Below, piece by piece: positions 2,527 through 64,000 of a DNA stretch of 64,000 nucleotides. Position 1 is the stretch's first letter, and each line of letters opens with the position of its first letter. The position numbers and the translations under genes are program-made. This DNA is from Terriglobales bacterium (lineage in GTDB: Bacteria > Acidobacteriota > Terriglobia > Terriglobales > Acidobacteriaceae). The DNA lies in assembly GCA_050014475.1 (NCBI GenBank), contig JBEKDG010000008.1:18636-82635 (forward strand). Direction: 5' to 3'. A model generated the notes under the pieces. It had not been told where the DNA came from, searched no databases, and saw only the letters and a program-made list of their open reading frames with translations.

Positions 2527-4723
2527 TCCTCCACCCCGGCACCGGCAACGCCACCGAGCGCAAGTCCTCGGTTGCCAGCTTCAGATACACCTGCGTAGAA
2601 GCAGCCGAGCGGTGGCCCAATACGTCACCGATCGACTTCAGCGGAACACTCGCCCGCAAGAGGCTTACTGCTCGTGCGTAGCGGATGGCGTGTGGACCGC
2701 GCCTGCCTTCCGTCTTGATACCGGCCTGCCGGATTCGGCGGCCCAACACCGTGTAGAGACTGGAGCCACCGGCAAAGGGACCGTGAGGTGCTCTAGCCTT
2801 GATGAACACTTCTCGCAGATGTGTTTGTGGCCGGCCCCGGCGGAGATAATTAAGGATGGCTTGGCCGACTTCCGCCATGAGCGGCAAAAGCAGGTCGGCG
2901 CCCGTCTTAGACTGTTTTACCTTTATCTGTTCGCAGCGCCAGTTGATGTCTTCGAGCTTCATGCGGACGACCTCGCCGGCGCGAAGTCCGTACTTGGCTA
3001 CGAGTAACAGCATGGCGTGGTCGCGCAATCCAATCGGCGTCTGATCGTAACGAGTGACGGCTTGCAATCTCTTGACCTGTTCATCGGTGAATGCCAACGG
3101 AATGTCTTCATGCCGATAGAGGATCGGGCCGCTTACGGCGACTGCGAGATCTCGTTCAATCAACCCGTCCGCATAGAGGAAGCGCAGGAAGCTGCGCAGA
3201 CAGCTGGCCACTCCATGCCTGGTCACTCGCCTCAACCCCTGGTTCCGCCAAACAAGGAAGGCATCAATGTCCGACACAGCCAGTCGACGCATCGTATTCG
3301 GGCCGGCACGGTCTCCCAGCCACTCGAGGAACACTTTTGCAGCGTGCCCATTCTTCCGCAGCGTCTCCGCGGAGAATCCGTGGAGTTCCGTCAACCAGCG
3401 CCCGTAGCTCGTGCATATCTGACGGCGGAATGCTTCGATTTCATCTTGGACTGGTCTTTCAGGCGGCCACTGCCCACGGACCAGCCGCAGGTAGCGTCGG
3501 ATCGGGCTCGTCTGGTGGTAGTGCCATAGAGCGACGTTTCGAGGATGCTGTTCGTGGTTGCGCCGGCACTCGGCAAGCCGCAATTCCACGTAGGACGCGA
3601 CGTGTTCGGGCGTCACCTCTTCAACCGGAATCGACCGGCTTCGTAAGAAGCGCAGGAACACCCGGACGGTCGACATCATGCTGGGGATCACGGAAGCGCG
3701 AAACCGCTGTTCGGCGAGGTATTGCCGAAAGCGCTCCAGCGAGGGATCGGGTCGGCTGTCTGCCGGCCAATAACCGTGGACCAACCGCAATAGGCGGCTG
3801 ACCGGAGATACAACAGTGGCTTTCCAACTCCGCATGTACCGCGGAAATCTGCCGTGGCGCTTCTGATAGGCCGCCAGCTTCGTTTGAACGAAGCTGGTCA
3901 CGTGGGCAGCTTGCACTTTTTCCAGAGAGATACCCTGCGTCTCTAAGTGTCTTAGGAACTCAATGCAGCGGCGAAGATATACCCCACGCCTCTTTGGACA
4001 CGAGAAAGCATGCTCCAGATGTTTCTTCAGCCGCTCCAGCCAGGGCTGCACTGGACGTGCCGGTGGCCATTCTCCTTGCACAAGTCGCAGCAAGTAGTGA
4101 ATGCCGGGTGTCAGTCCACATCGCCAGTCTACGACGCTCCCCGGAAGCCGACCTTGCTCGCGCTGGTAAAGAACCAGTTCGCGATCAATGAATGCCGATA
4201 CGTCAGCCGGTGCCGCAACCTCCGGTGGTACAGACCTATCGCCAAGGAAGAAAAGAAAGCGGCGTACGACCTGAAGGTAGCGCTGTCTAGTTCTAGGCTT
4301 TTGCCCCGCCTGTTCGAGGCGCGCCCGAAACCACTCCAGGCGCGTTTCGATCTCATTCGAGGGAGGCCACTGCCCTTGCGCCAGGCGTAGCAGCAGGGTG
4401 ATCGGCGACATGTGATGCCAGTGCCAGCCGCGCTGATTCTTTGGGCACCGTCCGTGTTTCCACCGATAGTGGCGCAACCTTACACGAAGAAATGCGTCGA
4501 CATCCGCTGCTCGTACCGATTCGACCGGAATCTGGCGGCGCTCCAGGTAGCGCAGGAACTTCCGTCCGACTACGCAGTAGCTTTTGGTTGCAGGACGGCT
4601 GTAATGCTCACGGGCTAAGTGTTCCTTCAGTTGCGGCAACCATCTGTCAAGGCATGAGGTGTGCTGTGAAATGGTGTTTGCTCCCCGTACTGGTATACGC
4701 AGAAACAGGCCGATTGGACTCAA
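2519..4723 (-). CDS. large tyrosine recombinase, first gene of trio (RitA-like position), with repeated N-terminal modules
   Basis: 734-aa ORF; TTG start as drawn, exact start uncertain. C-terminal GLRAGEV, PHAIRYARA and LGHRSAASTQVYL motifs. Four tandem 100-aa N-terminal repeats precede a canonical core-binding-like segment. Confidence 0.85.
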   Translation of the reverse strand: MSPIGLFLRIPVRGANTISQHTSCLDRWLPQLKEHLAREHYSRPATKSYCVVGRKFLRYLERRQIPVESVRAADVDAFLRVRLRHYRWKHGRCPKNQRGWHWHHMSPITLLLRLAQGQWPPSNEIETRLEWFRARLEQAGQKPRTRQRYLQVVRRFLFFLGDRSVPPEVAAPADVSAFIDRELVLYQREQGRLPGSVVDWRCGLTPGIHYLLRLVQGEWPPARPVQPWLERLKKHLEHAFSCPKRRGVYLRRCIEFLRHLETQGISLEKVQAAHVTSFVQTKLAAYQKRHGRFPRYMRSWKATVVSPVSRLLRLVHGYWPADSRPDPSLERFRQYLAEQRFRASVIPSMMSTVRVFLRFLRSRSIPVEEVTPEHVASYVELRLAECRRNHEQHPRNVALWHYHQTSPIRRYLRLVRGQWPPERPVQDEIEAFRRQICTSYGRWLTELHGFSAETLRKNGHAAKVFLEWLGDRAGPNTMRRLAVSDIDAFLVWRNQGLRRVTRHGVASCLRSFLRFLYADGLIERDLAVAVSGPILYRHEDIPLAFTDEQVKRLQAVTRYDQTPIGLRDHAMLLLVAKYGLRAGEVVRMKLEDINWRCEQIKVKQSKTGADLLLPLMAEVGQAILNYLRRGRPQTHLREVFIKARAPHGPFAGGSSLYTVLGRRIRQAGIKTEGRRGPHAIRYARAVSLLRASVPLKSIGDVLGHRSAASTQVYLKLATEDLRSVALPVPGWRND

Positions 4724-9689: not shown

Positions 9690-11513
9690 TCATTCATGCA
9701 TGTCGTCGAAGAATGTCTTTAGTTCGCGGCAGCGCGAGGGGTGGCGCAGCTTGCGCAGAGCCTTGGCTTCGATCTGGCGAATGCGCTCGCGGGTGACGGC
9801 GAACGCCCGGCCAACCTCCTCCAGCGTGTGCTCCGAACCGTCCTCCAGACCAAAGCGCATCCTCATGATCTTCTCCTCGCGCGGAGTCAGAGTGCGCAGC
9901 ACCTGCCCGGTCTGCTCCTTCAGGTTCACGTTGATGGCAGCCTCGTCCGGTGCGAGCGCAGCGCTGTCTTTGATGAAGTCGCCGAGATGGGAATCCCCCT
10001 CCTCACCAATTGGCGTCTCTAGCGAGAGCGGTACCTGCATGATCTTGCGCACTTTGCGTACCTTGGCTGCGGGAATGTCCAGGCGTTTGGCAATCTCTGA
10101 CGAGGTAGGTTCGCGGCCCAACTCCTGGACCAGTTGCCGCGAGACGCGAATCAGCTTGTTGACGATCTCAATCATGTGCACTGGGAGTCGGATGGTGCGC
10201 GCCTGATCGGCAATGGCTCGGGTGACTGCCTGGCGAATCCACCACGTAGCATAGGTGGAAAACTTGTAGCCTCGGCGATACTCGAACTTGTCCACCGCCT
10301 TCATCAGGCCGACGTTTCCCTCCTGGATCAGATCGAGAAACTGCAATCCGCGGTTGCCATACTTCTTGGCGATGGAAACCACGAGGCGCAGGTTGGCTTC
10401 AATGAGCTCGTGCTTGGCCTGCTCCGCGTCCATCTCGCCCCGGATGATTTCGCGCTGCGTGCGCTGCAACTCCTGGAACCCAACGCCGGCAGCGCTTTCC
10501 AGCCCTTCCAGGTCGGCGTGATGCTGCCGCTGAGTCTTGCTGTACGCCTTCTTGAGTTCTTCGCTGCGCGTGCTCTCAACCTTCTTATCCAGATTGCTGA
10601 TGTGGCGGTCGAGCGAGCGCATAATTTCCATGTTTTTATTCACCCGATCGACCAGGCGGTTGCGCTCGAAATTCGTGAGACCGAGGTTGCGGATGATGAG
10701 CGAAATCCGAACAATCTCGCGGCCCAGCCTGCAGCGGCAGCGAGTGTGTTCGCGTGCTTTCTTTCTTGCCGGGATCGTCTGCAACTGTTCGGCCAGGTGG
10801 CCCGCTCGTTTGTAATGCTTTTGCAACTCGTCGATGCGGCGCGTGACTTCTTCGACGCGGTTCTGCAGGATCTCCTCGGTGATCTCTTCCTCATCGAAGA
10901 CGACAGTTTCCTTGATCGAGCGCACGCCGCGCCTCAAATCCTCGCCAATGGTCAGGACCTGTCGGATCACAACAGGCGAGCGGGAGAGTGCCTTCAACAT
11001 GCGCAGCTGTCCACGCTCGATGCGCTTGGCGATATCCACTTCCCCTTCTCGGGTGAGCAGAGGCACCGCGCCCATCTCGCGCAAGTAGATCCGCACTGGA
11101 TCGTTGGTCTTTTCAAGGGCGCCACCGGTGGGATCGAGTTCGACTTCGCTGCCGCTCTCCACTTCCTTATCAAGCTTTTTTTCGAAGGCCGAGAAAAGAA
11201 GCTTGGGCTGCCCCTCAAGCACATCAATCCCCCGCGTGCCGATGGTAGTGAGCAGGTCGTCCAGATCCTCTGGGGAATGGACGTCGTGCGGAATTAGGTC
11301 ATTCACCTCGTTGTAGGTGAGATAGCCCTTTTCCTTACCTGCATCAACGAGTTTCGTAATGTCGCCAATAGACAAGTGGAATCTCTTCAGCGCCGTCTTG
11401 CCATGGAAGCGAGACTCTGCGGGGAACAAGCAACGGACTACTTCTACCCTCGCCGTTGTAAGACCACGGAAGTGGAATTGATCCGAACCGTAGCGTGAGC
11501 GAAGGCCCGGCAT
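9690..11513 (-). CDS. rpoD: RNA polymerase sigma-70 factor, primary-like
   Basis: Regions 1.1-4 are recognisable ([65 protein letters not shown]). The ORF extends to 11852 but that extension looks spurious. Start is ATG 11513 or TTG 11375. Confidence 0.9.
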
Positions 11514-24495: not shown

Positions 24496-24514
24496 AGATT
24501 TCTCCTGGGTCCGC

Positions 24515-24570
24515 TTGTCGCTGTTCGCTATTCGCTTTTCGCGCGAACAGCGAACGACGAACAGCGAACA
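24515..24570. repeat. near-loopless hairpin made of 4+4 heptads (TGTTCGC / GCGAACA)
   Basis: Read directly. By my count about 22 of 28 positions pair around the centre at 24542/24543. Confidence 0.85.
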
Positions 24571-24576
24571 GCCTCT

Positions 24577-28348: not shown

Positions 28349-28670
28349 AGGCCCCACTAAATCCGCGCCTTGCAGGGAGGCGACCCGCATCCCCAAAAGG
28401 CGGGCCAATAGAATCTCTCCTAAGCCGGATACTAGCACAATCGCGAAAAAGTGTTGCCACCTTTTCGTCTCCGACCCATACCTTCTGCGCATCTTTTTTC
28501 TCCTTTTGGGTGGTGGGCTAATTCCGTATTGCTGAGCCGCGAGCTTCGAGCAAACCGGTGCCCCGCAGCTCGCAGCTTACTTATTCGGCAACACAGAATT
28601 AGCCCATTCAGTCCTTTTGCTCGTTGGCCCCGGGGCCGGATCGTCCCTGCTACAATTCTGCGTTCCCTTT

Positions 28671-30009: not shown

Positions 30010-30086
30010 CAGTTCTCAGTTCCCAGTTCTCAGTTCTCAGTACGAGCTGATTTTGCTGAGAACTGAGAACTGGGAACTGAGAACTA
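30010..30086. repeat. long hairpin with arms built from CAGTTCT heptads
   Basis: 31-nt arms, 30/31 complementary, with a 15-nt loop. The left-arm variant CAGTTCC is matched by GGGAACT in the right arm. Confidence 0.92.
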
Positions 30087-30092
30087 GCGGAA

Positions 30093-31523
30093 GTGCCCTC
30101 CACGACGAAAAAGACCTTGACGAATAAGACCCTGGCCATCCTGTTGGCCAGCGTGACGTTTCTTTCCGCGGCGCCTGCTGCGGACGAGAAACACATCTCC
30201 GTCTATTCTCCGGTCGCGATCTACACGCTCCCGGTTCTGGATCGTGCCGGCCATGAGTATGTCGGCCTGCTCGAACTTCTGGAACCGCTTGGCCGCGTAA
30301 GCAGCCAGTCGGACGGGCGCCGCTGGAAGCTTCGCTATAACGCGGTGGATGCCGAGTTTGTTGCGGGAAAGACGCGGGCCAAAATTCGCGGGCACAATTT
30401 TGATCTCCTGGCTCCCTTCCTTCTGGAAAACTCGCGCGGATTGGTTCCGTTAAATTCGCTCAGCGCGTTGCTGCCGCGCTTTCTGGGAACGCCAGTTAAT
30501 TTTCGCGAAAGCGCGCGCCGCTTATTCGTCGGCGATGTCGGCATACAAATCAGTTTCCAACTGGACGCGAGCAATCCGCCGCGGCTGGCGCTGAATTTTA
30601 GCGCTCCGGTGAACCCGACGATCTCCACCGAACCAGGCAAGCTGCGCATGGTCTTTAAGCGCGACCCGGTCGTGTCCCCGGGAAGCCAGTCGATTGCTTT
30701 TGCCAACAAGGTCATCACGCAGGCCAGCTACTCCGAGAACAACGGTGACGCTGAATTAGACCTGGCTGCAAACGAGCCGCTGATGGCAAGCTTCAGCAAC
30801 AACCGAAGGACGATCGTCGTTTCCGCGGTCCCACAAACGCCAGCGACGCCGAGTGCCGTTGGACTTGGACCACAGAATCCGGCGCAGACCCCACCACCGG
30901 CGGCGCCGGCTGCAAACGCCGCCGCAGGCACTCATCGCGTTCTGGCCGTGGTCGATGCCGCGCACGGTGGCGATGAACGGGGTGCGGCCTTGACCGATAC
31001 GCTGGCCGAAAAAGACGTCACCTTGGGATTTGCGCGGCTGCTGCGGCATGAACTGGAGATTCGGGGCTTCGCGGTTGCCTTGCTGCGCGATGCGGATAAC
31101 AGTTTGACTCTGGATCAGCGCGCCGCGGCAGCCAACGTTGCGCGCGCCGGAATCTACATCAGCCTGCACGCGGTTTCGCAGGGCAGCGGCGCGCGCGTGT
31201 ACACCGCCCTGCTTCCGGTCGAGGGAACGAGCAAAGGAGTATTCCATGCGTGGAATGCGGCACAGGCGCCGGCTTTGCCCATCAGCCGGATCGTATCGGC
31301 GGCAATTGTTGCCGAGATGCAGAAGAGAGAATTCCCGGTTCAAGCGTCTTCCGCTTCGCTGCGGCCGTTGAACAACGTGTTCATGCCCGCGGTCGCGGTG
31401 GAACTGGCGCCCGGAGCGGATGGTGTCGCCGACTTGACCTCTGCCAATTATCAACAACGGGCCGCGTCGGCGATTGCCGATGCTGTGGTTTCCGTCCGTG
31501 ACCGCCTGGGGGTGCGGCCATGA
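30093..31523 (+). CDS. N-acetylmuramoyl-L-alanine amidase with N-terminal AMIN-like region
   Basis: VVDAAHGGDERGA amidase_3 motif and a signal peptide. GTG start. Confidence 0.82.
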   Translation: MPSTTKKTLTNKTLAILLASVTFLSAAPAADEKHISVYSPVAIYTLPVLDRAGHEYVGLLELLEPLGRVSSQSDGRRWKLRYNAVDAEFVAGKTRAKIRGHNFDLLAPFLLENSRGLVPLNSLSALLPRFLGTPVNFRESARRLFVGDVGIQISFQLDASNPPRLALNFSAPVNPTISTEPGKLRMVFKRDPVVSPGSQSIAFANKVITQASYSENNGDAELDLAANEPLMASFSNNRRTIVVSAVPQTPATPSAVGLGPQNPAQTPPPAAPAANAAAGTHRVLAVVDAAHGGDERGAALTDTLAEKDVTLGFARLLRHELEIRGFAVALLRDADNSLTLDQRAAAANVARAGIYISLHAVSQGSGARVYTALLPVEGTSKGVFHAWNAAQAPALPISRIVSAAIVAEMQKREFPVQASSASLRPLNNVFMPAVAVELAPGADGVADLTSANYQQRAASAIADAVVSVRDRLGVRP

Positions 31524-31539
31524 TGGGCACGGGAAGAAA

Positions 31540-31633
31540 ATCGGGTCATCGGATGATCGGGTCATCGGGTCATCTAAAGTCAAAGGCCTTTGAACTTCGA
31601 TCACCCGATGGCCCGATCATCCGATCACCCGAT
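31540..31633. repeat. compound hairpin with 35-nt arms of octamer units (CGGGTCAT / ATGACCCG-like) and an inner 14-nt palindrome
   Basis: The arms are 32/35 complementary. The inner palindrome is TCAAAGGCCTTTGA at 31580-31593. Confidence 0.9.
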
Positions 31634-31647
31634 CCGCAGGTGCAAAG

Positions 31648-32232
31648 ATGATCCCCCGCCATCTTCTGATCGGCGTAGCTGCGCTGCTGGTGCTGGTCGT
31701 GTCGATGGGAATCTACCTTCGCCACATGCGGCAACAGGCGAGGGATTTGGAGTCTCCGGCGGCCAACGCGTTGCCCGTGGCTCCCCCAGCCTCGGGTCCA
31801 ATGGAGACGGTGACTCTGTATGTGGCCGATGACGCCGCCGGCATGTTGCGCCCGCGATCGGCGCAGATTCCTCTGCCCGGAGGACGCCAGCAGCGAGCCG
31901 AGGAGTTGTTGCGCGCGCTGCTGCGCATCTACCAGCAGCCGGGTGCAGCCCATCCTCTGGCGCCGGCGGCGGACATCCGCAGCATCTACCTGGTCGATCC
32001 GGGCGCGGCCGTCATTGATCTGAATGCTGCCTTCGCCGACCAGCACCGCTCCGGCATTCTAAGCGAGCAGCTCACCGTGAATTCGCTGGTGGAGACGCTG
32101 GCCGTCAACGTTCCAGGGATCCAGCGGGTCAACATCCTGGTCGAGGGTAAGACGCGCGACACGCTCGCGGGTCACGCCGACCTGACCGGGACGTTCGATG
32201 TAATCGCGGTTGAGCAGGCGGGCAGCCAATAA
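31648..32232 (+). CDS. GerMN domain-containing protein
   Basis: 194 aa with an N-terminal TM segment, then ...AEELLRALL...IYLVD...AVIDLN...VNSLVETLAVNVPGIQRVNILVEG. Confidence 0.72.
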   Translation: MIPRHLLIGVAALLVLVVSMGIYLRHMRQQARDLESPAANALPVAPPASGPMETVTLYVADDAAGMLRPRSAQIPLPGGRQQRAEELLRALLRIYQQPGAAHPLAPAADIRSIYLVDPGAAVIDLNAAFADQHRSGILSEQLTVNSLVETLAVNVPGIQRVNILVEGKTRDTLAGHADLTGTFDVIAVEQAGSQ

Positions 32233-38494: not shown

Positions 38495-38604
38495 TTTCAA
38501 CCCCTCTTGCCGATAGAACGCGTCCTTTTGCAGGAACTTGCTAATGCTCATTGCAGGGGCTGTGGTTTAGAATGACTTGTCGTATTGCACTGATAGGAGG
38601 ACTT

Positions 38605-39612
38605 ATGAAACTTACCCCCGGCAAACTCGCCGGAATGAAGGCGGTATCGAATGAACGTGGAGTTATCGCGGCTGCCGCCATGGACCAGCGCGGCTCGCTG
38701 CAGAAGTCTCTCGCCAAGGAAAAAGGCACGGCCGTTTCTGACGCCATGATGGAAGAATTCAAGATACTGGTGAGCGAGGTCCTCACGCCACATGCCAGCG
38801 CCATCCTGCTTGATCCCGAGTGGGGGCTGCCGGCTTCGAAGCGCCGCTCAAAAAATGCTGGTCTGCTCCTGGCGTATGAAAAGACCGGGTACGACAAGAC
38901 TGGACCGGGGCGCCAGGGCGATCTGCTGAATCATTGGTCGGTGCGCCGCTTGAAAGAAGCGGGCGCGGATTGCATCAAGATTCTGCTTTACTACACGCCG
39001 TTTGATCCGAAAGACATCAACGACCAGAAGCACGCCTGGGTCGAGCGGCTGGGCGATGAGTGCCGCGCCAATGACATCCCATTCTTCCTGGAGTTCGTCA
39101 CGTACGAAGAAGGCGTGGACGAGAAAGGCCTCGACTTCGCGAAAAAGAAGCCGAAGGCGGTCCTCGAAGCCATGCGCGAGTTCACCAAGGACCGCTACGG
39201 CGTTGACGTAATGAAGGTGGAAGTCCCGATCAACATGAAGTTTGTGGAAGGGACCAAGTCCTACAAGGGTGAGAAGGCTTACACGAAACAGGAGGCGATG
39301 AAGCTCTTCCGTGAGGCCGCCGCGGTCGCGACCAAGCCCTTCATCTATCTGTCGGCGGGCGTGAGCAATGCCGAGTTCACCGAGTCGCTGGAGCTGGCGG
39401 CCGAGTCGGGTGTGAAATTCAACGGCGTGCTCTGCGGACGCGCCACCTGGAAAGATGGCATCCCCATCTATGCCAAACACGGCGCCGGTGCTTTCCGGAA
39501 GTGGCTGGAAGATGAAGGCGTAAAGAATATCAATAACGTAAACGATCGCTTGAAGGCCGCAACCTCATGGCACTCGATCTACGGGGTGGAGCCGGCGCTG
39601 GCCCGCGTGTAG
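38605..39612 (+). CDS. class I tagatose-bisphosphate aldolase family (LacD-like)
   Basis: GGAGGA upstream of the ATG. VIAAAAMDQRGSL N-terminal motif and KVEVP active-site Lys region. Confidence 0.78.
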   Translation: MKLTPGKLAGMKAVSNERGVIAAAAMDQRGSLQKSLAKEKGTAVSDAMMEEFKILVSEVLTPHASAILLDPEWGLPASKRRSKNAGLLLAYEKTGYDKTGPGRQGDLLNHWSVRRLKEAGADCIKILLYYTPFDPKDINDQKHAWVERLGDECRANDIPFFLEFVTYEEGVDEKGLDFAKKKPKAVLEAMREFTKDRYGVDVMKVEVPINMKFVEGTKSYKGEKAYTKQEAMKLFREAAAVATKPFIYLSAGVSNAEFTESLELAAESGVKFNGVLCGRATWKDGIPIYAKHGAGAFRKWLEDEGVKNINNVNDRLKAATSWHSIYGVEPALARV

Positions 39613-39672: not shown

Positions 39673-39707
39673 GTGCTGAATGCTGAGTGCCGAATGCTGA
39701 CTGCTGA
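39673..39707. repeat. five tandem heptads NTGCYGA with no inverted partner
   Basis: GTGCTGA ATGCTGA GTGCCGA ATGCTGA CTGCTGA. Confidence 0.85.
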
Positions 39708-43800: not shown

Positions 43801-44035
43801 TTCGTATCAGGGCATCGCTTTAGCGATACCGTAAGTTCTTCGAAATCGGACGCCCCTTTAGAGTGTGCATGAGAACTCGGTCGTCCCTCCGGGACTCGAA
43901 TCATTTCCTCCACTTTTCCCAGCGCTGAAGCGCTGGGCTAAGCTCGGACGCCCCTCCGGGGCTGGATTCTCGGGCATCTTGTTCCACCGGGTTGCCCGAA
44001 AACGAGTTCTCTCACACACACTTTAGGGGCTGGGC
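43801..44035. repeat. compound repeat: a copy of the 18161-18233 core interrupted by a 160-bp insert
   Basis: The core halves are 43801-43861 and 44022-44035. TTTAG is present on both sides of the insert (43862-44021), and the insert ends are imperfect inverted repeats. Confidence 0.55.
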
Positions 44036-44721: not shown

Positions 44722-44797
44722 GTGGAGAGCCGGGCGTCTCCGCCCGGCTGGACGGGCGAGACGCCCGTCCCTCCACAATATGACCTATCACGCGGTC
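44722..44797. repeat. 76-nt twin-hairpin dispersed repeat, copy 2
   Basis: 71/76 identical to 23259-23334, in the same orientation. Confidence 0.85.
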
Positions 44798-46215: not shown

Positions 46216-46255
46216 CCGATGACCCGATGGCCCGATCACCCGATGGCCCGATCAA
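46216..46255. repeat. five tandem octamers CCGATSRC abutting the accB stop
   Basis: CCGATGAC CCGATGGC CCGATCAC CCGATGGC CCGATCAA. No inverted partner is seen. Confidence 0.85.
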
Positions 46256-46256
46256 C

Positions 46257-46754
46257 TCATTTTGCCGGCCGGACGGCGAACAGTTCCTGGCCGTACTCGA
46301 TGGGCTGGCCGTTGGCGACGAGCTTCTTGACCAACTCTCCCGCCACGTCGCATTCGATTTCGTTCATCAGTTTCATCGCTTCAACAATGCACAAAACCTG
46401 GCCCACTTCCAGGGGATCGCCAACTTTGACGAAGGGCGGCGACCCGGGCGAGGGCGATTCGTAGAAGGTGCCCACGATCGGCGACCGCACAATGTGCAGA
46501 TCTTCTTCCGGCTCAGGGACCGGCGCGGCAGCCGCGGCGAGGTCGACCTTGGCAGGCGCGGAAGCGGGACTGTGGCCGCCCGCGTCAACCGGGGCGGGGT
46601 GAACCGCGATATAACGCGCGTCCGGCAACACCACGGGCGACGGTTCGGCGGCGCGCTTGATCTTCACCTTGACATCGCCGCGCTCCAATTCAAACTCGGC
46701 AATGTCCTTTTCGATTAAGAACTCGATGAGTTCTTTCAGCTCTTTTTGATTCAT
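46257..46754 (-). CDS. accB: biotin carboxyl carrier protein
   Basis: EAMKLMNEIE biotinylation motif in the C-terminal lipoyl-like domain. Confidence 0.93.
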   Translation of the reverse strand: MNQKELKELIEFLIEKDIAEFELERGDVKVKIKRAAEPSPVVLPDARYIAVHPAPVDAGGHSPASAPAKVDLAAAAAPVPEPEEDLHIVRSPIVGTFYESPSPGSPPFVKVGDPLEVGQVLCIVEAMKLMNEIECDVAGELVKKLVANGQPIEYGQELFAVRPAK

Positions 46755-47966: not shown

Positions 47967-48084
47967 CCAGTTCTCAGGTCTCAGGTCTCAGGAAATCCAA
48001 ATTCCCACTAGATGCGATGTCAACAATGTTCTGCAGAGCCGCCGACGATTTTCCTGAGACCTGACAACTGAGACCTGAAACCTG
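47967..48084. repeat. inverted heptad arrays (CAGGTCT / AGACCTG) with a 53-nt spacer
   Basis: The 29-nt arms pair at 25/29 positions by my count. Confidence 0.8.
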
Positions 48085-48135
48085 AAAAGCAAAGCCGCCG
48101 GGCTCTCGGCAGGTTCTCCGAGAAAGCCGGCGGCT
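48084..48135 (-). terminator. probable rho-independent terminator of pilQ
   Basis: On the minus strand, AGCCGCCGG...CCGGCGGCT with an inner CTCGG/CCGAG pair, followed by TTGCTTTTC. Confidence 0.55.
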
Positions 48136-56774: not shown

Positions 56775-56944
56775 CCAGGTCTCAGGTCTCAGGTCTCGGC
56801 TCTCAGCTATCAGTTCTCAGGAGAATCTCTTCATCTTGAGTCCCTGGGTTTTTCGTGAGCATCTGGCACGCTATTGACTGTCGATTCGTGTGAAGGTCAG
56901 CCTTTTCTGAGAACTGAGAACTGATAGCTGAGAGCTGAGAGCTG
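56775..56944. repeat. inverted heptad arrays (CAGGTCT/CAGCTCT/CAGTTCT) with an 85-nt spacer
   Basis: A 21-nt perfect core, CTCTCAGCTATCAGTTCTCAG, has its complement at 56909-56932, and pairing extends to about 31 bp with 2 mismatches. Confidence 0.85.
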
Positions 56945-56991
56945 ATTTACAATGATGCGGGGCTGGAACTCCGTGGGGTGAAAAACGCAGC

Positions 56992-59223: not shown

Positions 59224-59234
59224 GGGGCAGCTTT

Positions 59235-59290
59235 CAGCTCTCAGCTCTCAGCTCTTCGCTCTTGGCTTTTCGCTCTCGGTTCTTGGCTCT
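59235..59290. repeat. eight tandem heptads (CAGCTCT degenerating to TGGCTCT) with no inverted partner
   Basis: Read directly, immediately after the E1 stop. Confidence 0.85.
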
Positions 59291-59324
59291 CGGATTTCAC
59301 AGAGTCCCGGAGGGACGGCCGAGA

Positions 59325-62175: not shown

Positions 62176-62186
62176 ACAGGAGTTCC

Positions 62187-62254
62187 CGGCTCTCCGTTCT
62201 CAGTTCAACCAACCGGATCTCCACTGAGAACTGAGAACCGGAAACTGAGAACTG
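62187..62254. repeat. short hairpin/array of GAGAACT-type heptads
   Basis: GTTCTCAG pairs with CTGAGAAC, and the right arm carries three CTGAGAAC-type units. Confidence 0.7.
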
Positions 62255-62257
62255 TTT

Positions 62258-64000
62258 CTACTGAATCGTAATCGCCGCCTGCGCTCCGCTCATCGCAATC
62301 GGCTGCATCGCCGGGTCCCGGGCTCCGCCCCGAGTAATCGTCAGCGCCGACTGGCCCGGCCCCTTCGCCATGAAGGTGAGCGTCACCACCGCGCCCTGTC
62401 CAGAAACGCCCCCGGCGCCCGGAGGCCGCGTGGCCGTGACTTGCAGCGTGCCGGTCGCGGGATCGTCGCGATGCACTAACGCCACCGCTTGCCCGTCCTG
62501 CGACAGGAATCCGCCGTTCGATATGTTGACCACCTGCAACTGATTCGGATCGTAGTTAAGTTGCACGGGGACCGAATACACGTTCTGCCCGCCGGAAAGC
62601 ATCACATTCACCGTGAAGGTCGAGCCCTTGGCCTGGCTCAAGGTGGGCGGATCAAACAGGAACGTTCCTGTACCGGCTCCAGCCTGGGTTTGCGGAACTT
62701 GATTCTGCGGAGGCTGAGCTTGCGGAATCAAATTCTGCGGAGTCGGCGTTTGCGGCATCGCCGCCTGCGGCTGCGCCGGAGCGGCTGCGGGCGCGGCCTG
62801 GATCCCTGGTGAAGACGCCGGGGCGGGCGCGCCGCTCGCCGGCCCCGCCGGCTTGCTGCTCGATCGTCTCAACTCCAGCGCATTGGCCGTACCCACGTCG
62901 ATCATGTCGACATTGCCACGCGGCCCCTCAGGCCCGCGGATAATGTGCGGGACCAGCACGAACACGATTTCGTTCTCCGCATGATCGGTATCGGTCTCTC
63001 CAAAGAGATATTTCAGGATCGGAATCTGCGCCAGACCCGGAATCCCGGTCAGCGCCTTGGTCTGCGTATCCTCCATCATGCCGCCCAGCAGGCTGACTTC
63101 GCCATCCTTCAAGCGAATCTCGTTCTCGATTTTGCGCTGGCCGATCACCGGTTGGCTGATGCCTCCAATGCTTACGTACGAGGTCACCGCCGAGACGTCC
63201 ATCGTCATCTTCAACGTAATTTCCCGTCCCGCATGCACCCGCGGCGTGATGTCGATGTTCACGCCCACATCGAGGTATTGAAATTGCGTGTTGACCAGCG
63301 GGTTGATACCGACTCCGCCAATGCCCGGCTGAAACGATCCCGTCGCCACCGGCACGCGATCGCCGATCTTCAGCGACGCCTTCTGCCCGTCCAGCGCCCG
63401 GATCTGCGGGTTCTGGATGATCTTGGTGTTGGTGTCGCTCAACAATGCCGTCGCCGTAGCCTGCGGAATCGTCACCTGGAAGTCGGTGGCATTCAGGTTC
63501 GCGATCGTATTCAGGCTGATGCCGGTCGTCGAGGCGGTAGTACCCGTGGTGGTTGTAGTGCTCGAGGTAGTGTTGACATTGGGCTGCAACTGTACCGAGG
63601 CGCTGGTCGGAGGGTTGATTCCAAGCTTGCGCGACTTGTCGCGGCTCACCTGCATCACCGCCACTTCGATCAGCACCTCTGGTTTCGCCTTGTCGAGATC
63701 GTCCACCAGTTTCTGCGCCAGCGCCATCTGGTCCGGCGTGCCCCGCACCACGATCGCTCCCTGCGAGGGCAACTGCTGAATCCGGCTCACCTCGAGGATG
63801 GTGCGCATCGCGTTCACTACATCCTGCAATTCGGTAGGCTGAGAAAGATTGGAAAGATAAAAAGTTTTGATGACGTTTTGTTCCAGCTCTTTCCGCTTCG
63901 CGGGATTGTCTTGCGCGATAAAAATCGTGTTCGGCGTCACCGGACGCCAAAAGGTTTTGGTCTCAAACGATATGACCTCCAGCGCGTCTTCGAGCGTCAC
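62258..64000 (-). CDS. secretin (GspD/PilQ superfamily) with a C-terminal cohesin-like domain; 5' end outside the window
   Basis: Secretin domain (IPGLAQIPILKYLFG), a Pro/Ala/Gln linker, then about 150 aa of cohesin-like beta domain (FTVNVMLSGGQNVYSVPVQLNYDPNQLQVV). Confidence 0.88.
   Translation of the reverse strand: MTLEDALEVISFETKTFWRPVTPNTIFIAQDNPAKRKELEQNVIKTFYLSNLSQPTELQDVVNAMRTILEVSRIQQLPSQGAIVVRGTPDQMALAQKLVDDLDKAKPEVLIEVAVMQVSRDKSRKLGINPPTSASVQLQPNVNTTSSTTTTTGTTASTTGISLNTIANLNATDFQVTIPQATATALLSDTNTKIIQNPQIRALDGQKASLKIGDRVPVATGSFQPGIGGVGINPLVNTQFQYLDVGVNIDITPRVHAGREITLKMTMDVSAVTSYVSIGGISQPVIGQRKIENEIRLKDGEVSLLGGMMEDTQTKALTGIPGLAQIPILKYLFGETDTDHAENEIVFVLVPHIIRGPEGPRGNVDMIDVGTANALELRRSSSKPAGPASGAPAPASSPGIQAAPAAAPAQPQAAMPQTPTPQNLIPQAQPPQNQVPQTQAGAGTGTFLFDPPTLSQAKGSTFTVNVMLSGGQNVYSVPVQLNYDPNQLQVVNISNGGFLSQDGQAVALVHRDDPATGTLQVTATRPPGAGGVSGQGAVVTLTFMAKGPGQSALTITRGGARDPAMQPIAMSGAQAAITIQ

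Follow-up and report, generated by a model that had tools for sequence, protein, structure and literature searches.

Polar hairpins with tandem 7-8-nt repeat arms in intergenic spacers of Acidobacteriaceae

A repeat-arm hairpin between the DUF1015 and amidase genes

The stretch analysed here, called the window throughout, comprises 64,000 nt of the genome of a Terriglobales bacterium of the Acidobacteriaceae (contig JBEKDG010000008.1). Between a DUF1015 gene and an Amidase_3 gene it carries, at 30010-30086, a long hairpin whose arms are tandem arrays of heptads. The hairpin begins 7 nt past the stop codon of the DUF1015 gene (30002) and finishes 6 nt ahead of the GTG start codon of the amidase gene (30093). 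Its left arm (30010-30041) consists of 4.6 heptads CAGTTCT/CAGTTCC and its right arm (30056-30086) of heptads CTGAGAA/CTGGGAA; the loop ACGAGCTGATTTTG (30042-30055) is locus-specific yet conserved among orthologues. The perfectly paired segments, 30011-30040 and 30056-30085, are 30 nt each, 100% complementary and separated by 15 nt. Including the C at 30010, which stands opposite the A at 30086, gives 30 pairs out of 31. Tandem Repeats Finder (TRF) recognized both arms as period-7 arrays. Coordinates and TRF thus bear out the first-pass annotation of this DNA, made from the sequence alone, which described 31-nt CAGTTCT arms with 30/31 pairs around a 15-nt loop. It had also pointed to the variant unit CAGTTCC of the left arm, mirrored by GGGAACT in the right arm. 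The mirroring is real, but it is inherited and common to many species rather than a fresh compensatory event.

RNA folding of the region gave -65.7 kcal/mol, against -22.7 +/- 3.0 kcal/mol for shuffled sequences (z = -14.3). The only T run at this site, TTTTG, comes after a small alternative stem at the apex (30030-30050).

Arrays of short repeats pair in a fixed order

A comparative set was assembled from the amidase protein. It contains 77 syntenic loci whose amidases share 48-94% amino-acid identity with that of the window, all of them in genomes of uncultured Acidobacteriaceae or Terriglobales that come from peat and soil. In the window and these loci together (1.49 Mb), a census of arrays of at least 3 copies counted 166 arrays of period 7, 64 of period 8, 33 of period 6, 8 of period 9 and 2 of period 5. 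The main units are CTCAGTT/AACTGAG, ACCCAGT, GTAATTT, CAGCATT and the octads ATCGGGYS. An inverted partner was found at most 260 nt away for 132 of 233 arrays (57%), as compared with 0 of 233 in a reverse-only control. The first-pass annotation had allowed that a census might find such arrays no more often than simple-repeat content predicts; this outcome did not appear.

A second sample was drawn from metagenomes by an exact-pattern contig scan for (CAGTTCY)3CAG, which is blind to the partner arm and selects on one unit type. It added at least 120 further loci (L078-L197), with at least 258 period-7 arrays among the matches listed; all metagenome counts given below refer to these listed matches. 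Arrays could be judged single in 64 cases, and 25 lay too near contig ends to be judged. Of the 129 heptad arrays listed, 25 lie at most 120 nt from a contig end, which suggests that these repeats often break short-read assemblies.

All 56 array-array hairpins of the window and the 77 loci have the same order: a (CAGTTCY, CAGTACC, AATTTGT or ATCGGGYS)n array, the loop and then the complement. These hairpins are mostly orthologues of a few loci and are not independent. Among the metagenome matches listed, 39 arrays (32 unique hairpins) have their partner on the 3' side and 1 on the 5' side (p = 8e-9), so that in 32 of 33 independent hairpins the CAG-type arm precedes the other. Because an inverted repeat reads identically on both strands, the asymmetry is real and independent of gene direction. 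The polarity 5'-(CAGTTCY)n, loop, (RGAACTG)n-3' is nearly fixed on either strand. The only pair of reverse polarity listed, at L079 (- strand, ~2860-3150), reads (CTGAGAR)n, 23 nt, (TCTCAGT)n.

We considered unit numbers as distributions only. Arm arrays have 4 units (~28-31 bp) in 24 of 38 cases, where the search pattern itself set a minimum of 3; the spread is wider in single arrays, with up to 9, 16 and 27 units. The spacing between the two arrays of a pair varies from 0 to ~150 bp. Single arms are as common as hairpins and obey the same placement rule, which is described next.

Arrays adjoin the ends of open reading frames

In 16 of 25 cases, a single array in the CAG orientation starts at most 11 nt past a stop codon on its own strand; for arrays of the opposite orientation the count is 5 of 30 (p = 6e-4). 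CTGA-type arrays end at most 11 nt from a start codon in 11 of 21 cases vs 1 of 17, figures that are inflated because CTGA arrays hold TGA in every frame and the longest open reading frames (ORFs) were called. An ATG lies 0-11 nt away from many of the metagenome arrays listed. In four orthologous loci (L024, L025, L027 and L069), a single (CTGAGAA)n array stops 3 nt short of the conserved ATG of the Germane gene, the gene downstream of the amidase, and replaces the AGGTG Shine-Dalgarno sequence of array-free species. Arrays adjoin ORF ends even where a long stretch of spacer remains on their other side. All three frames of CAG-type arrays are open, so that ORF callers can be misled by them.

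Co-directional, divergent and convergent spacers hold 18, 7 and 3 of the metagenome hairpins listed, against a background of 233, 74 and 66 spacers (p = 0.58). Neither enrichment in convergent nor depletion in divergent spacers was seen among these 28 hairpins, a small sample with crude gene calls. Across loci the loops are mutually unrelated except for a loose border CAGTAAAA...TTTTNCTG, and the A/T tracts that border them have no preference for the sense strand.

In nine species of the comparative set (L003, L010, L011, L015, L017, L022, L024, L046 and L070, at about position 10000), the hairpin is of the CAGTACC type and the amidase gene has no visible conserved start codon downstream of it. 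A tblastn search aligned the heptads of CAGTACC-type species to VPST of the window amidase protein. Translation in these species may include the right arm (GGTACTG)n as the amidase N-terminus, or the start codon may be unusual.

Hairpins persist at orthologous sites but are often replaced

Past the DUF1015 stop codon, most species bear a strong hairpin, but the hairpin families differ; the most distant species have short spacers there. The states found in the DUF1015-amidase spacer are CAGTTCY heptads with two loop types, CAGTACC heptads, a GC-rich palindrome resembling the repetitive extragenic palindromes (REPs), and other elements. Along an ordering of species by protein distance (the unweighted pair group method with arithmetic mean, used solely to show interleaving), these states are interleaved, which indicates frequent replacement. 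The amidase-Germane spacer contains an octad hairpin in ~35 species (spacer of ~120 nt) and is 13 nt long and empty in ~15; the remaining species have either a lone CTGAGAA array there or repeats of other kinds.

Where an element is kept, it diverges slowly. The CAGTTCY hairpin with loop ACGAGCTGATYTTRC is retained up to a divergence of ~0.5-0.6 at fourfold-degenerate sites. In close pairs of species the spacer has diverged by 0.076 vs 0.157 at fourfold sites, and in more distant pairs the ratio of spacer to fourfold-site divergence is 0.09-0.45. A hand count of the locus-specific loop gave ~0.19 differences per site vs ~0.42. Elements at orthologous sites evolve at ~0.3-0.5 of the fourfold-site rate, yet they are often lost or replaced.

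The first-pass annotation had proposed to look in orthologues for covariation and length polymorphism. Paired differences in unit number do occur: L005 has one unit fewer per arm than the window, the mirrored variant unit included, and L052 is ~two units longer on each side. Covariation turned out to be marginal, as detailed below.

Several other repeats occupy the same spacers. The GC-rich REP-like palindrome family (GGTGGAGGGACGGGCGTC...GACGCCCGNCTCTCCACC) is represented in the window at 44722-44776. It lies just past the DUF1015 stop codon in nine species (L004, L006-L009, L013, L034, L054 and L066), and a fragment of it, CCCGGAGGGACGGCC, directly follows a single array at 59298-59320 of the window. 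Within 31511-31650, the last 13 nt of the amidase gene (GGTGCAACCATGA) recur just ahead of the Germane start codon, and L021 and L054 have 4-5 tandem copies of this 13-15-nt amidase-end unit. Further dispersed families, GGGTGGCGCAGCGCTTCAGCGCTGCG...GACTGCGGCTTTAGCCGC and TTGAATTGTCATCCTGAGCGAAGCGAAGGACC, were noticed in the amidase-Germane and DUF1015-amidase spacers (L002, L007, L023-L025, L029, L030, L071 and L001). An element of ~220 nt resembling a miniature inverted-repeat transposable element (MITE) is present in the spacers of L001 and L002.

The two arms are coupled, most likely at the DNA level

We asked how closely the two arms follow each other. At position 7 of the unit, the 32 independent metagenome hairpins listed contain 76 T:A, 18 C:G, 9 T:G and 11 C:A combinations (odds ratio 13.8, p = 1e-7). 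In orthologues, arms aligned in order form 699 Watson-Crick pairs vs 657.7 with units permuted; in a permutation test for each hairpin, 22 lay above their own mean and 4 below. Whole lineages carry either CAGTTCY/RGAACTG or CAGTACC/GGTACTG in both arms of the same spacer, and in the window hairpin at 56776-56945 the order TTCT, CTAT, CTCT is mirrored across an 86-nt loop. The arms are therefore coupled beyond the generic complementarity of their units, and the earlier observation that complementarity holds within each locus while units differ between loci is confirmed.

The scorer used to count mismatches allows no gaps and makes no distinction among non-Watson-Crick pairs. On the sense strand, the ratio of G:T to A:C mismatches was 34:22 in the DUF1015-amidase spacer, 19:14 at the independent co-directional loci listed and 26:34 in octads, which sums to 79:70 (p = 0.51). 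Nine orthologues yielded 5 compensated pairs, whereas shuffles averaged 2.5 +/- 1.3 and reached 5 in 33 of 500 cases; 18 of 31 pairs are invariant and the covariation term of RNAalifold is +0.37. Only positions 2 and 7 of the unit vary, while positions 1 and 3-6 are conserved, which shows that the unit sequence is conserved and not pairing alone. The evidence for selection on RNA pairing is thus weak, and complementarity of the arms is most likely maintained at the level of DNA. The first-pass annotation had offered selection on RNA or DNA structure, or a templated generating mechanism; its templated, DNA-level option fits these data better, while RNA selection does not fare well with equal G:T and A:C counts and weak covariation.

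Other hairpins and single arrays in the window

Five further hairpins of the same architecture, already listed in the first-pass annotation, are all real by inverted-repeat search, TRF and folding. At 24513-24572, heptads TTCGCTN/GCGAACA form a hairpin without loop spacer between two - strand genes for PLP-dependent enzymes (z vs shuffles -5.9). The hairpin at 31540-31634, between the amidase and Germane-domain genes, has period 8 (octads ATCGGGYS/SRCCCGAT, with the apical palindrome GTCAAAGGCCTTTGA; z = -10.6). Heptads CAGGTCT/AGACCTG enclose a 54-60-nt loop at 47968-48085, between the - strand genes of an M24 peptidase and a secretin (z = -4.3). In the hairpin with the 86-nt loop (56776-56945, z = -5.6), the left arm runs CAGGTCT..CAGCTAT..CAGTTCT and is mirrored in the right arm; it occupies a divergent spacer flanked by a HAD hydrolase gene on the - strand and an E1 dehydrogenase gene on the + strand. 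Finally, AGTTCYC-type heptads at 62181-62254 fill the 82-nt spacer between two genes of the - strand, all but 5 and 3 nt at its ends (z = -5.5).

Three single arrays had been overlooked in that list. About 10 CAGCTCT-type heptads without a partner arm lie on the + strand at 59228-59297, 4 nt past the stop codon of the E1 gene. An octad array (ATCGGGYS on the - strand) at 46216-46254 begins 2-4 nt past the stop codon of the ORF 46257-46754. TGCTGAA heptads, which are of the CTGA type, occupy 39674-39707 on the + strand, 61 nt past the stop codon of 38551-39612; they either precede the next + strand ORF or lie at its start. The degenerate two-unit pattern CAGNTCYCAGNTCYCAG, searched with at most one mismatch, has 22 matches in the window vs 0.01 expected.

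By our own gene calls, made with a home-made codon-bias caller, 9 of the 34 window spacers of at least 60 nt carry such arrays. All six hairpins lie between called genes, at 3-20 nt from them at most ends, and their unit sequences differ by locus; the earlier annotation had this right. Co-directional genes flank 5 of the 6, but the likely operons to which it assigned several copies cannot be assumed everywhere: the copy at 56776-56945 is divergent, as are 7 of the 28 metagenome copies listed. No T tract follows the complete hairpin at any of the six sites, in line with the absence of a terminator-like U tract noted before. Against Rfam 15, at the gathering score, the only matches in the window were one tRNA and Acido-Lenti-1, neither of which overlaps a hairpin.

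The Acido-Lenti-1 RNA match (RF01687; 43918-43963, + strand, 56 bits vs a gathering score of 37) sits between the arms 43852-43879 and 44003-44030 of a 28-nt inverted repeat that is 79% complementary. Another inverted repeat, of 22 nt and 86% complementary, has its arms at 28514-28535 and 28585-28606, 49 nt apart in the divergent spacer that a VWA-domain gene shares with the DUF1015 gene; this repeat could function as an operator or as a structured leader. At 62688-62797, within the - strand ORF 62258-64000, the sequence repeats in tandem with periods of 30 and ~15 nt.

Proposed origin and possible role of the hairpins

We tentatively favour the explanation that these are simple-sequence hairpins of the short tandemly repeated repetitive (STRR) type, whose arrays are made by slippage, whose arms are matched by fold-back copying of DNA, and which are retained as cis-acting expression elements. 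Replication slippage would give birth to an array and change its length. One arm would serve as template for the other while the inverted repeat is folded back on itself in replication or repair, through intramolecular template switching or quasipalindrome correction, and selection on RNA base pairs would not be the cause. Palindrome instability may cap the arms near 30 bp. Since arrays lie a few nt past stop codons and ahead of start codons, flanking mRNAs would have (CAGUUCU)n as a trailer and (AGAACUG)n as a leader, and a trailer and a leader on one transcript could close into a 25-35-bp stem. Retention would then concern leader and trailer tracts, or the stem, read by a putative sequence-specific factor, rather than neutral junk. 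The elements probably act in cis on expression.

Several points weigh against this explanation. All its mechanistic steps are our inference; template switching is known from E. coli quasipalindromes. It leaves unexplained both the recurrence of units and polarity at unrelated loci and the adjacency of the array 5' end to ORF ends. Position-2 variants (CGG) are not mirrored between arms. In L012, a hybrid hairpin (9917-10006) opposes left CAGTTCY units to right GGTACTG units, with periodic T:T and T:G mismatches, which shows that arms can diverge and that one can be homogenised without the other. The slow divergence of the arms may reflect homogenisation of units and not selection, and alignments of repeats understate divergence. 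Frequent loss and replacement among close relatives argues against an indispensable function. To these may be added the inflated start-codon figures, the non-independence of orthologous copies and the choice of the metagenome sample on one unit type.

Among the alternatives, a structured RNA comes first, although we regard it as rather unlikely. The hairpins would be intercistronic stem-loops in mRNA, serving as barriers to 3' exonucleases, as RNase III sites or in translational coupling, and their pairing would be under selection. The stems are very stable (z from -4 to -14), in operon-like contexts they span from a few nt past a stop codon to a few nt before the next start codon, and a strong hairpin of some family follows the DUF1015 stop codon in most species. 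The cyanobacterial literature suggests transcript stability or translational coupling for STRR hairpins, and the 5 compensated pairs among nine orthologues point the same way. However, the sense strand shows no preference for G:U over A:C, covariation barely exceeds that of shuffles, and the unit sequence itself is conserved across loci and samples. Moreover, 25% of the independent copies listed are in divergent spacers, where the arms need not share a transcript, and single arms are equally common and follow the same placement rule.

Alternatively, the arrays could be sites in double-stranded DNA, either a multi-site platform for a nucleoid-associated or global regulator or a pair that extrudes as a cruciform; this we consider improbable. 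It would agree with the strand symmetry of every signal, the use of spacers independently of gene orientation, and the fixed orientation of arrays at a spacing that varies from 0 to ~150 bp. The conserved positions 1 and 3-6 and variable positions 2 and 7 resemble a degenerate binding motif, and the arm measures ~30 bp whatever the unit length. Yet with a period of 7-8 bp consecutive sites face different sides of the B-DNA helix, protein binding does not call for variant units in mirrored order, and it would be odd for a transcription factor to have its sites beside both stop and start codons. A candidate protein was not found.

The hairpins might also be a by-product without function, arising where slippage-prone heptads meet fold-back copying and harmless in spacers. 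Heptamers are indeed the most slippage-prone class of long simple-sequence repeats in many bacteria according to the cited literature, no spacer type is preferred, and mismatches are strand-symmetric. Gain, loss and replacement are frequent among close relatives, and unit numbers vary. We nevertheless consider this improbable: the spacer, locus-specific loop included, diverges at about half the fourfold-site rate or less, one loop is kept up to a fourfold-site divergence of ~0.5-0.6, and arrays adjoin ORF ends even with a long spacer beyond. Near-absolute polarity and similar units across phyla call for a sequence-specific cause.

It is very improbable that the hairpins are mobile, that is, MITE-like or similar to REPINs, copied by a transposase, with single arrays as decayed halves. 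Fixed polarity and the coexistence of doublets with decayed singlets recall REPINs, and the octad hairpin is present or absent at one site (~120 nt in ~35 species vs 13 nt in ~15). A fuzzy search for its apical palindrome returned 20 orthologous matches and one clear non-orthologous copy, at L171, with a weaker likeness at L052 12188. Against mobility, the loops of the four CAGNTCT-type window hairpins and of the 32 metagenome hairpins listed are unrelated in sequence and length, and the comparison of filled with empty sites reveals no visible target-site duplication.

Rho-independent, possibly bidirectional, terminators without a canonical U tract are the least credible reading: although the hairpins are sited just past stop codons, their borders are often CAGTAAAA...TTTTNCTG and some apices are small GC stems followed by Ts (30030-30050 and TTTTG, for example), there is no T tract after the full stem, T tracts have no sense-strand preference, convergent spacers are not enriched nor divergent ones depleted, and many copies are inside apparent operons.

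A few narrower candidates were rejected. Composition rules out G-quadruplexes for the main units, as CAGTTCY, CAGTACC and TTCGCTN have no G tract and only the octad ATCGGGYS has GGG. A role of CTGA arrays as three-frame stops ahead of start codons fails for the CAGTACC, ATCGGGYS and AATTTGT families. Judged by eye, three others could not be sustained: a likeness of GATCACC in the octad, one of several unit variants only, to the 3' tail of 16S rRNA; LexA boxes, since the GTTC/GTAC spacing is off by one or more; and attC sites, as no R'/R'' cores are visible and the flanking genes are syntenic housekeeping genes.

Comparison with known repeat systems

The first-pass annotation was aware of no described function for such hairpins. 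This is correct, but the architecture itself has been published for Xanthomonas and Nostoc, for Geobacter metallireducens and for cyanobacterial STRRs. We found no literature report of such repeats specific to Acidobacteria.

The closest published counterparts are the heptads GGGAATC of Xanthomonas and GGGGA(C/T)T of Nostoc, which are mostly intergenic and mostly present in 4 units; a Xanthomonas genome contains 70-75 inverted pairs in convergent orientation (Rehm et al. 2015, PMC4692102). These arrays are almost exclusively closer to the ORF on their 5' side, whichever way it is oriented, that is, past its stop codon if they are on the coding strand or before its start codon if on the non-coding strand. 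They are transcribed, and unit number varies between related species while the single or paired type is kept. No function was identified, and the arrays were read as G-quadruplex formers (PMC4692102). The excess of period 7, the pairs of fixed orientation, the mode of ~4 units and the nearness to the 5' ORF all recur in the acidobacterial set, and by eye the octad ATCGGGYS shares the core ATCGGG with a rotated GGGAATC. In contrast, the Xanthomonas and Nostoc units are G-rich, whereas CAGTTCY has one G and cannot form a quadruplex; their arrays are scarce between divergent ORFs, while divergent spacers hold 7 of the 28 acidobacterial hairpins listed vs a background of 20%. As CAGTTCY shows the same mode, convergent pairing and placement without being able to form quadruplexes, these cannot be the general explanation.

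In cyanobacteria, STRRs are 7-bp tandem repeats that form a hairpin between the co-transcribed genes hupS and hupL; transcript stabilisation or translational coupling has been proposed for them, their function being unproven. The architecture is alike, but STRRs have been described in filamentous cyanobacteria only. The STRR1 unit CCCCAGT resembles the acidobacterial ACCCAGT.

In Geobacter metallireducens, pairs of sites on opposite strands, at variable distance, comprise 3-5 tandem 7-9-mers: GTTGCTYN x4, TCTCCGTS[Y] x3 and MTYCTGA x5, the last found between proB and proA (Aklujkar et al. 2009, PMC2700814). They were guessed to be DNA sites for a regulator of IHF/HU type. Judged by eye, MTYCTGA shares the core CTGA with CTGAGAA, and TCTCCGTS resembles acidobacterial ACGGAG-type octads; the published account differs in having no hairpin reading or conservation analysis. 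TAACTGA direct repeats occur in marine Beggiatoaceae, cyanobacteria and Bacteroidetes and end ~1 nt before start codons (MacGregor 2015, PMC4679880). This heptad is near-identical to GAACTGA, and the acidobacterial CTGA-type arrays obey the same orientation rule. The two differ in pairing, with 1 inverted pair in 170 sets of TAACTGA repeats vs over half of the acidobacterial arrays.

A different comparison is with REPs, BIMEs and REPINs, which are abundant intergenic imperfect palindromes with fixed-orientation doublets and decayed singlets. REPs are unique sequences of 20-40 nt with a conserved head (GTAG or CGTC), recent copies share their spacers, and they are linked to RAYT transposases. 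The acidobacterial hairpins differ in that their arms are tandem 7-8-mers, and that loops and variant patterns differ at each locus.

Because the recurrence of units and polarity at unrelated loci and in other phyla is left unexplained by the STRR-type explanation that we favour, a case can be made, unlikely as we hold it, that the arrays of Acidobacteria, Xanthomonas/Nostoc, Geobacter and Beggiatoa are products or targets of one conserved putative sequence-specific system. Such a protein or process may install or read ~4 units of 7-8 nt in fixed orientation beside ORF ends, independently of quadruplexes and of RNA pairing. If so, its signature would be the shared cores CTGA, ATCGGG and ACGGAG, whose resemblance is by eye, together with the placement rules, over four or more phyla.

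As roughly a quarter of the longer window spacers carry arrays, a genome would hold hundreds at that density. The acidobacterial units, being unable to form G-quadruplexes, remove the main published rationale for such arrays. They also add near-absolute polarity, seemingly DNA-templated complementarity and continued constraint, which together make the question of function testable. The acidobacterial hairpins belong to a known class; what is new is the phylum and the units that are not G-rich.

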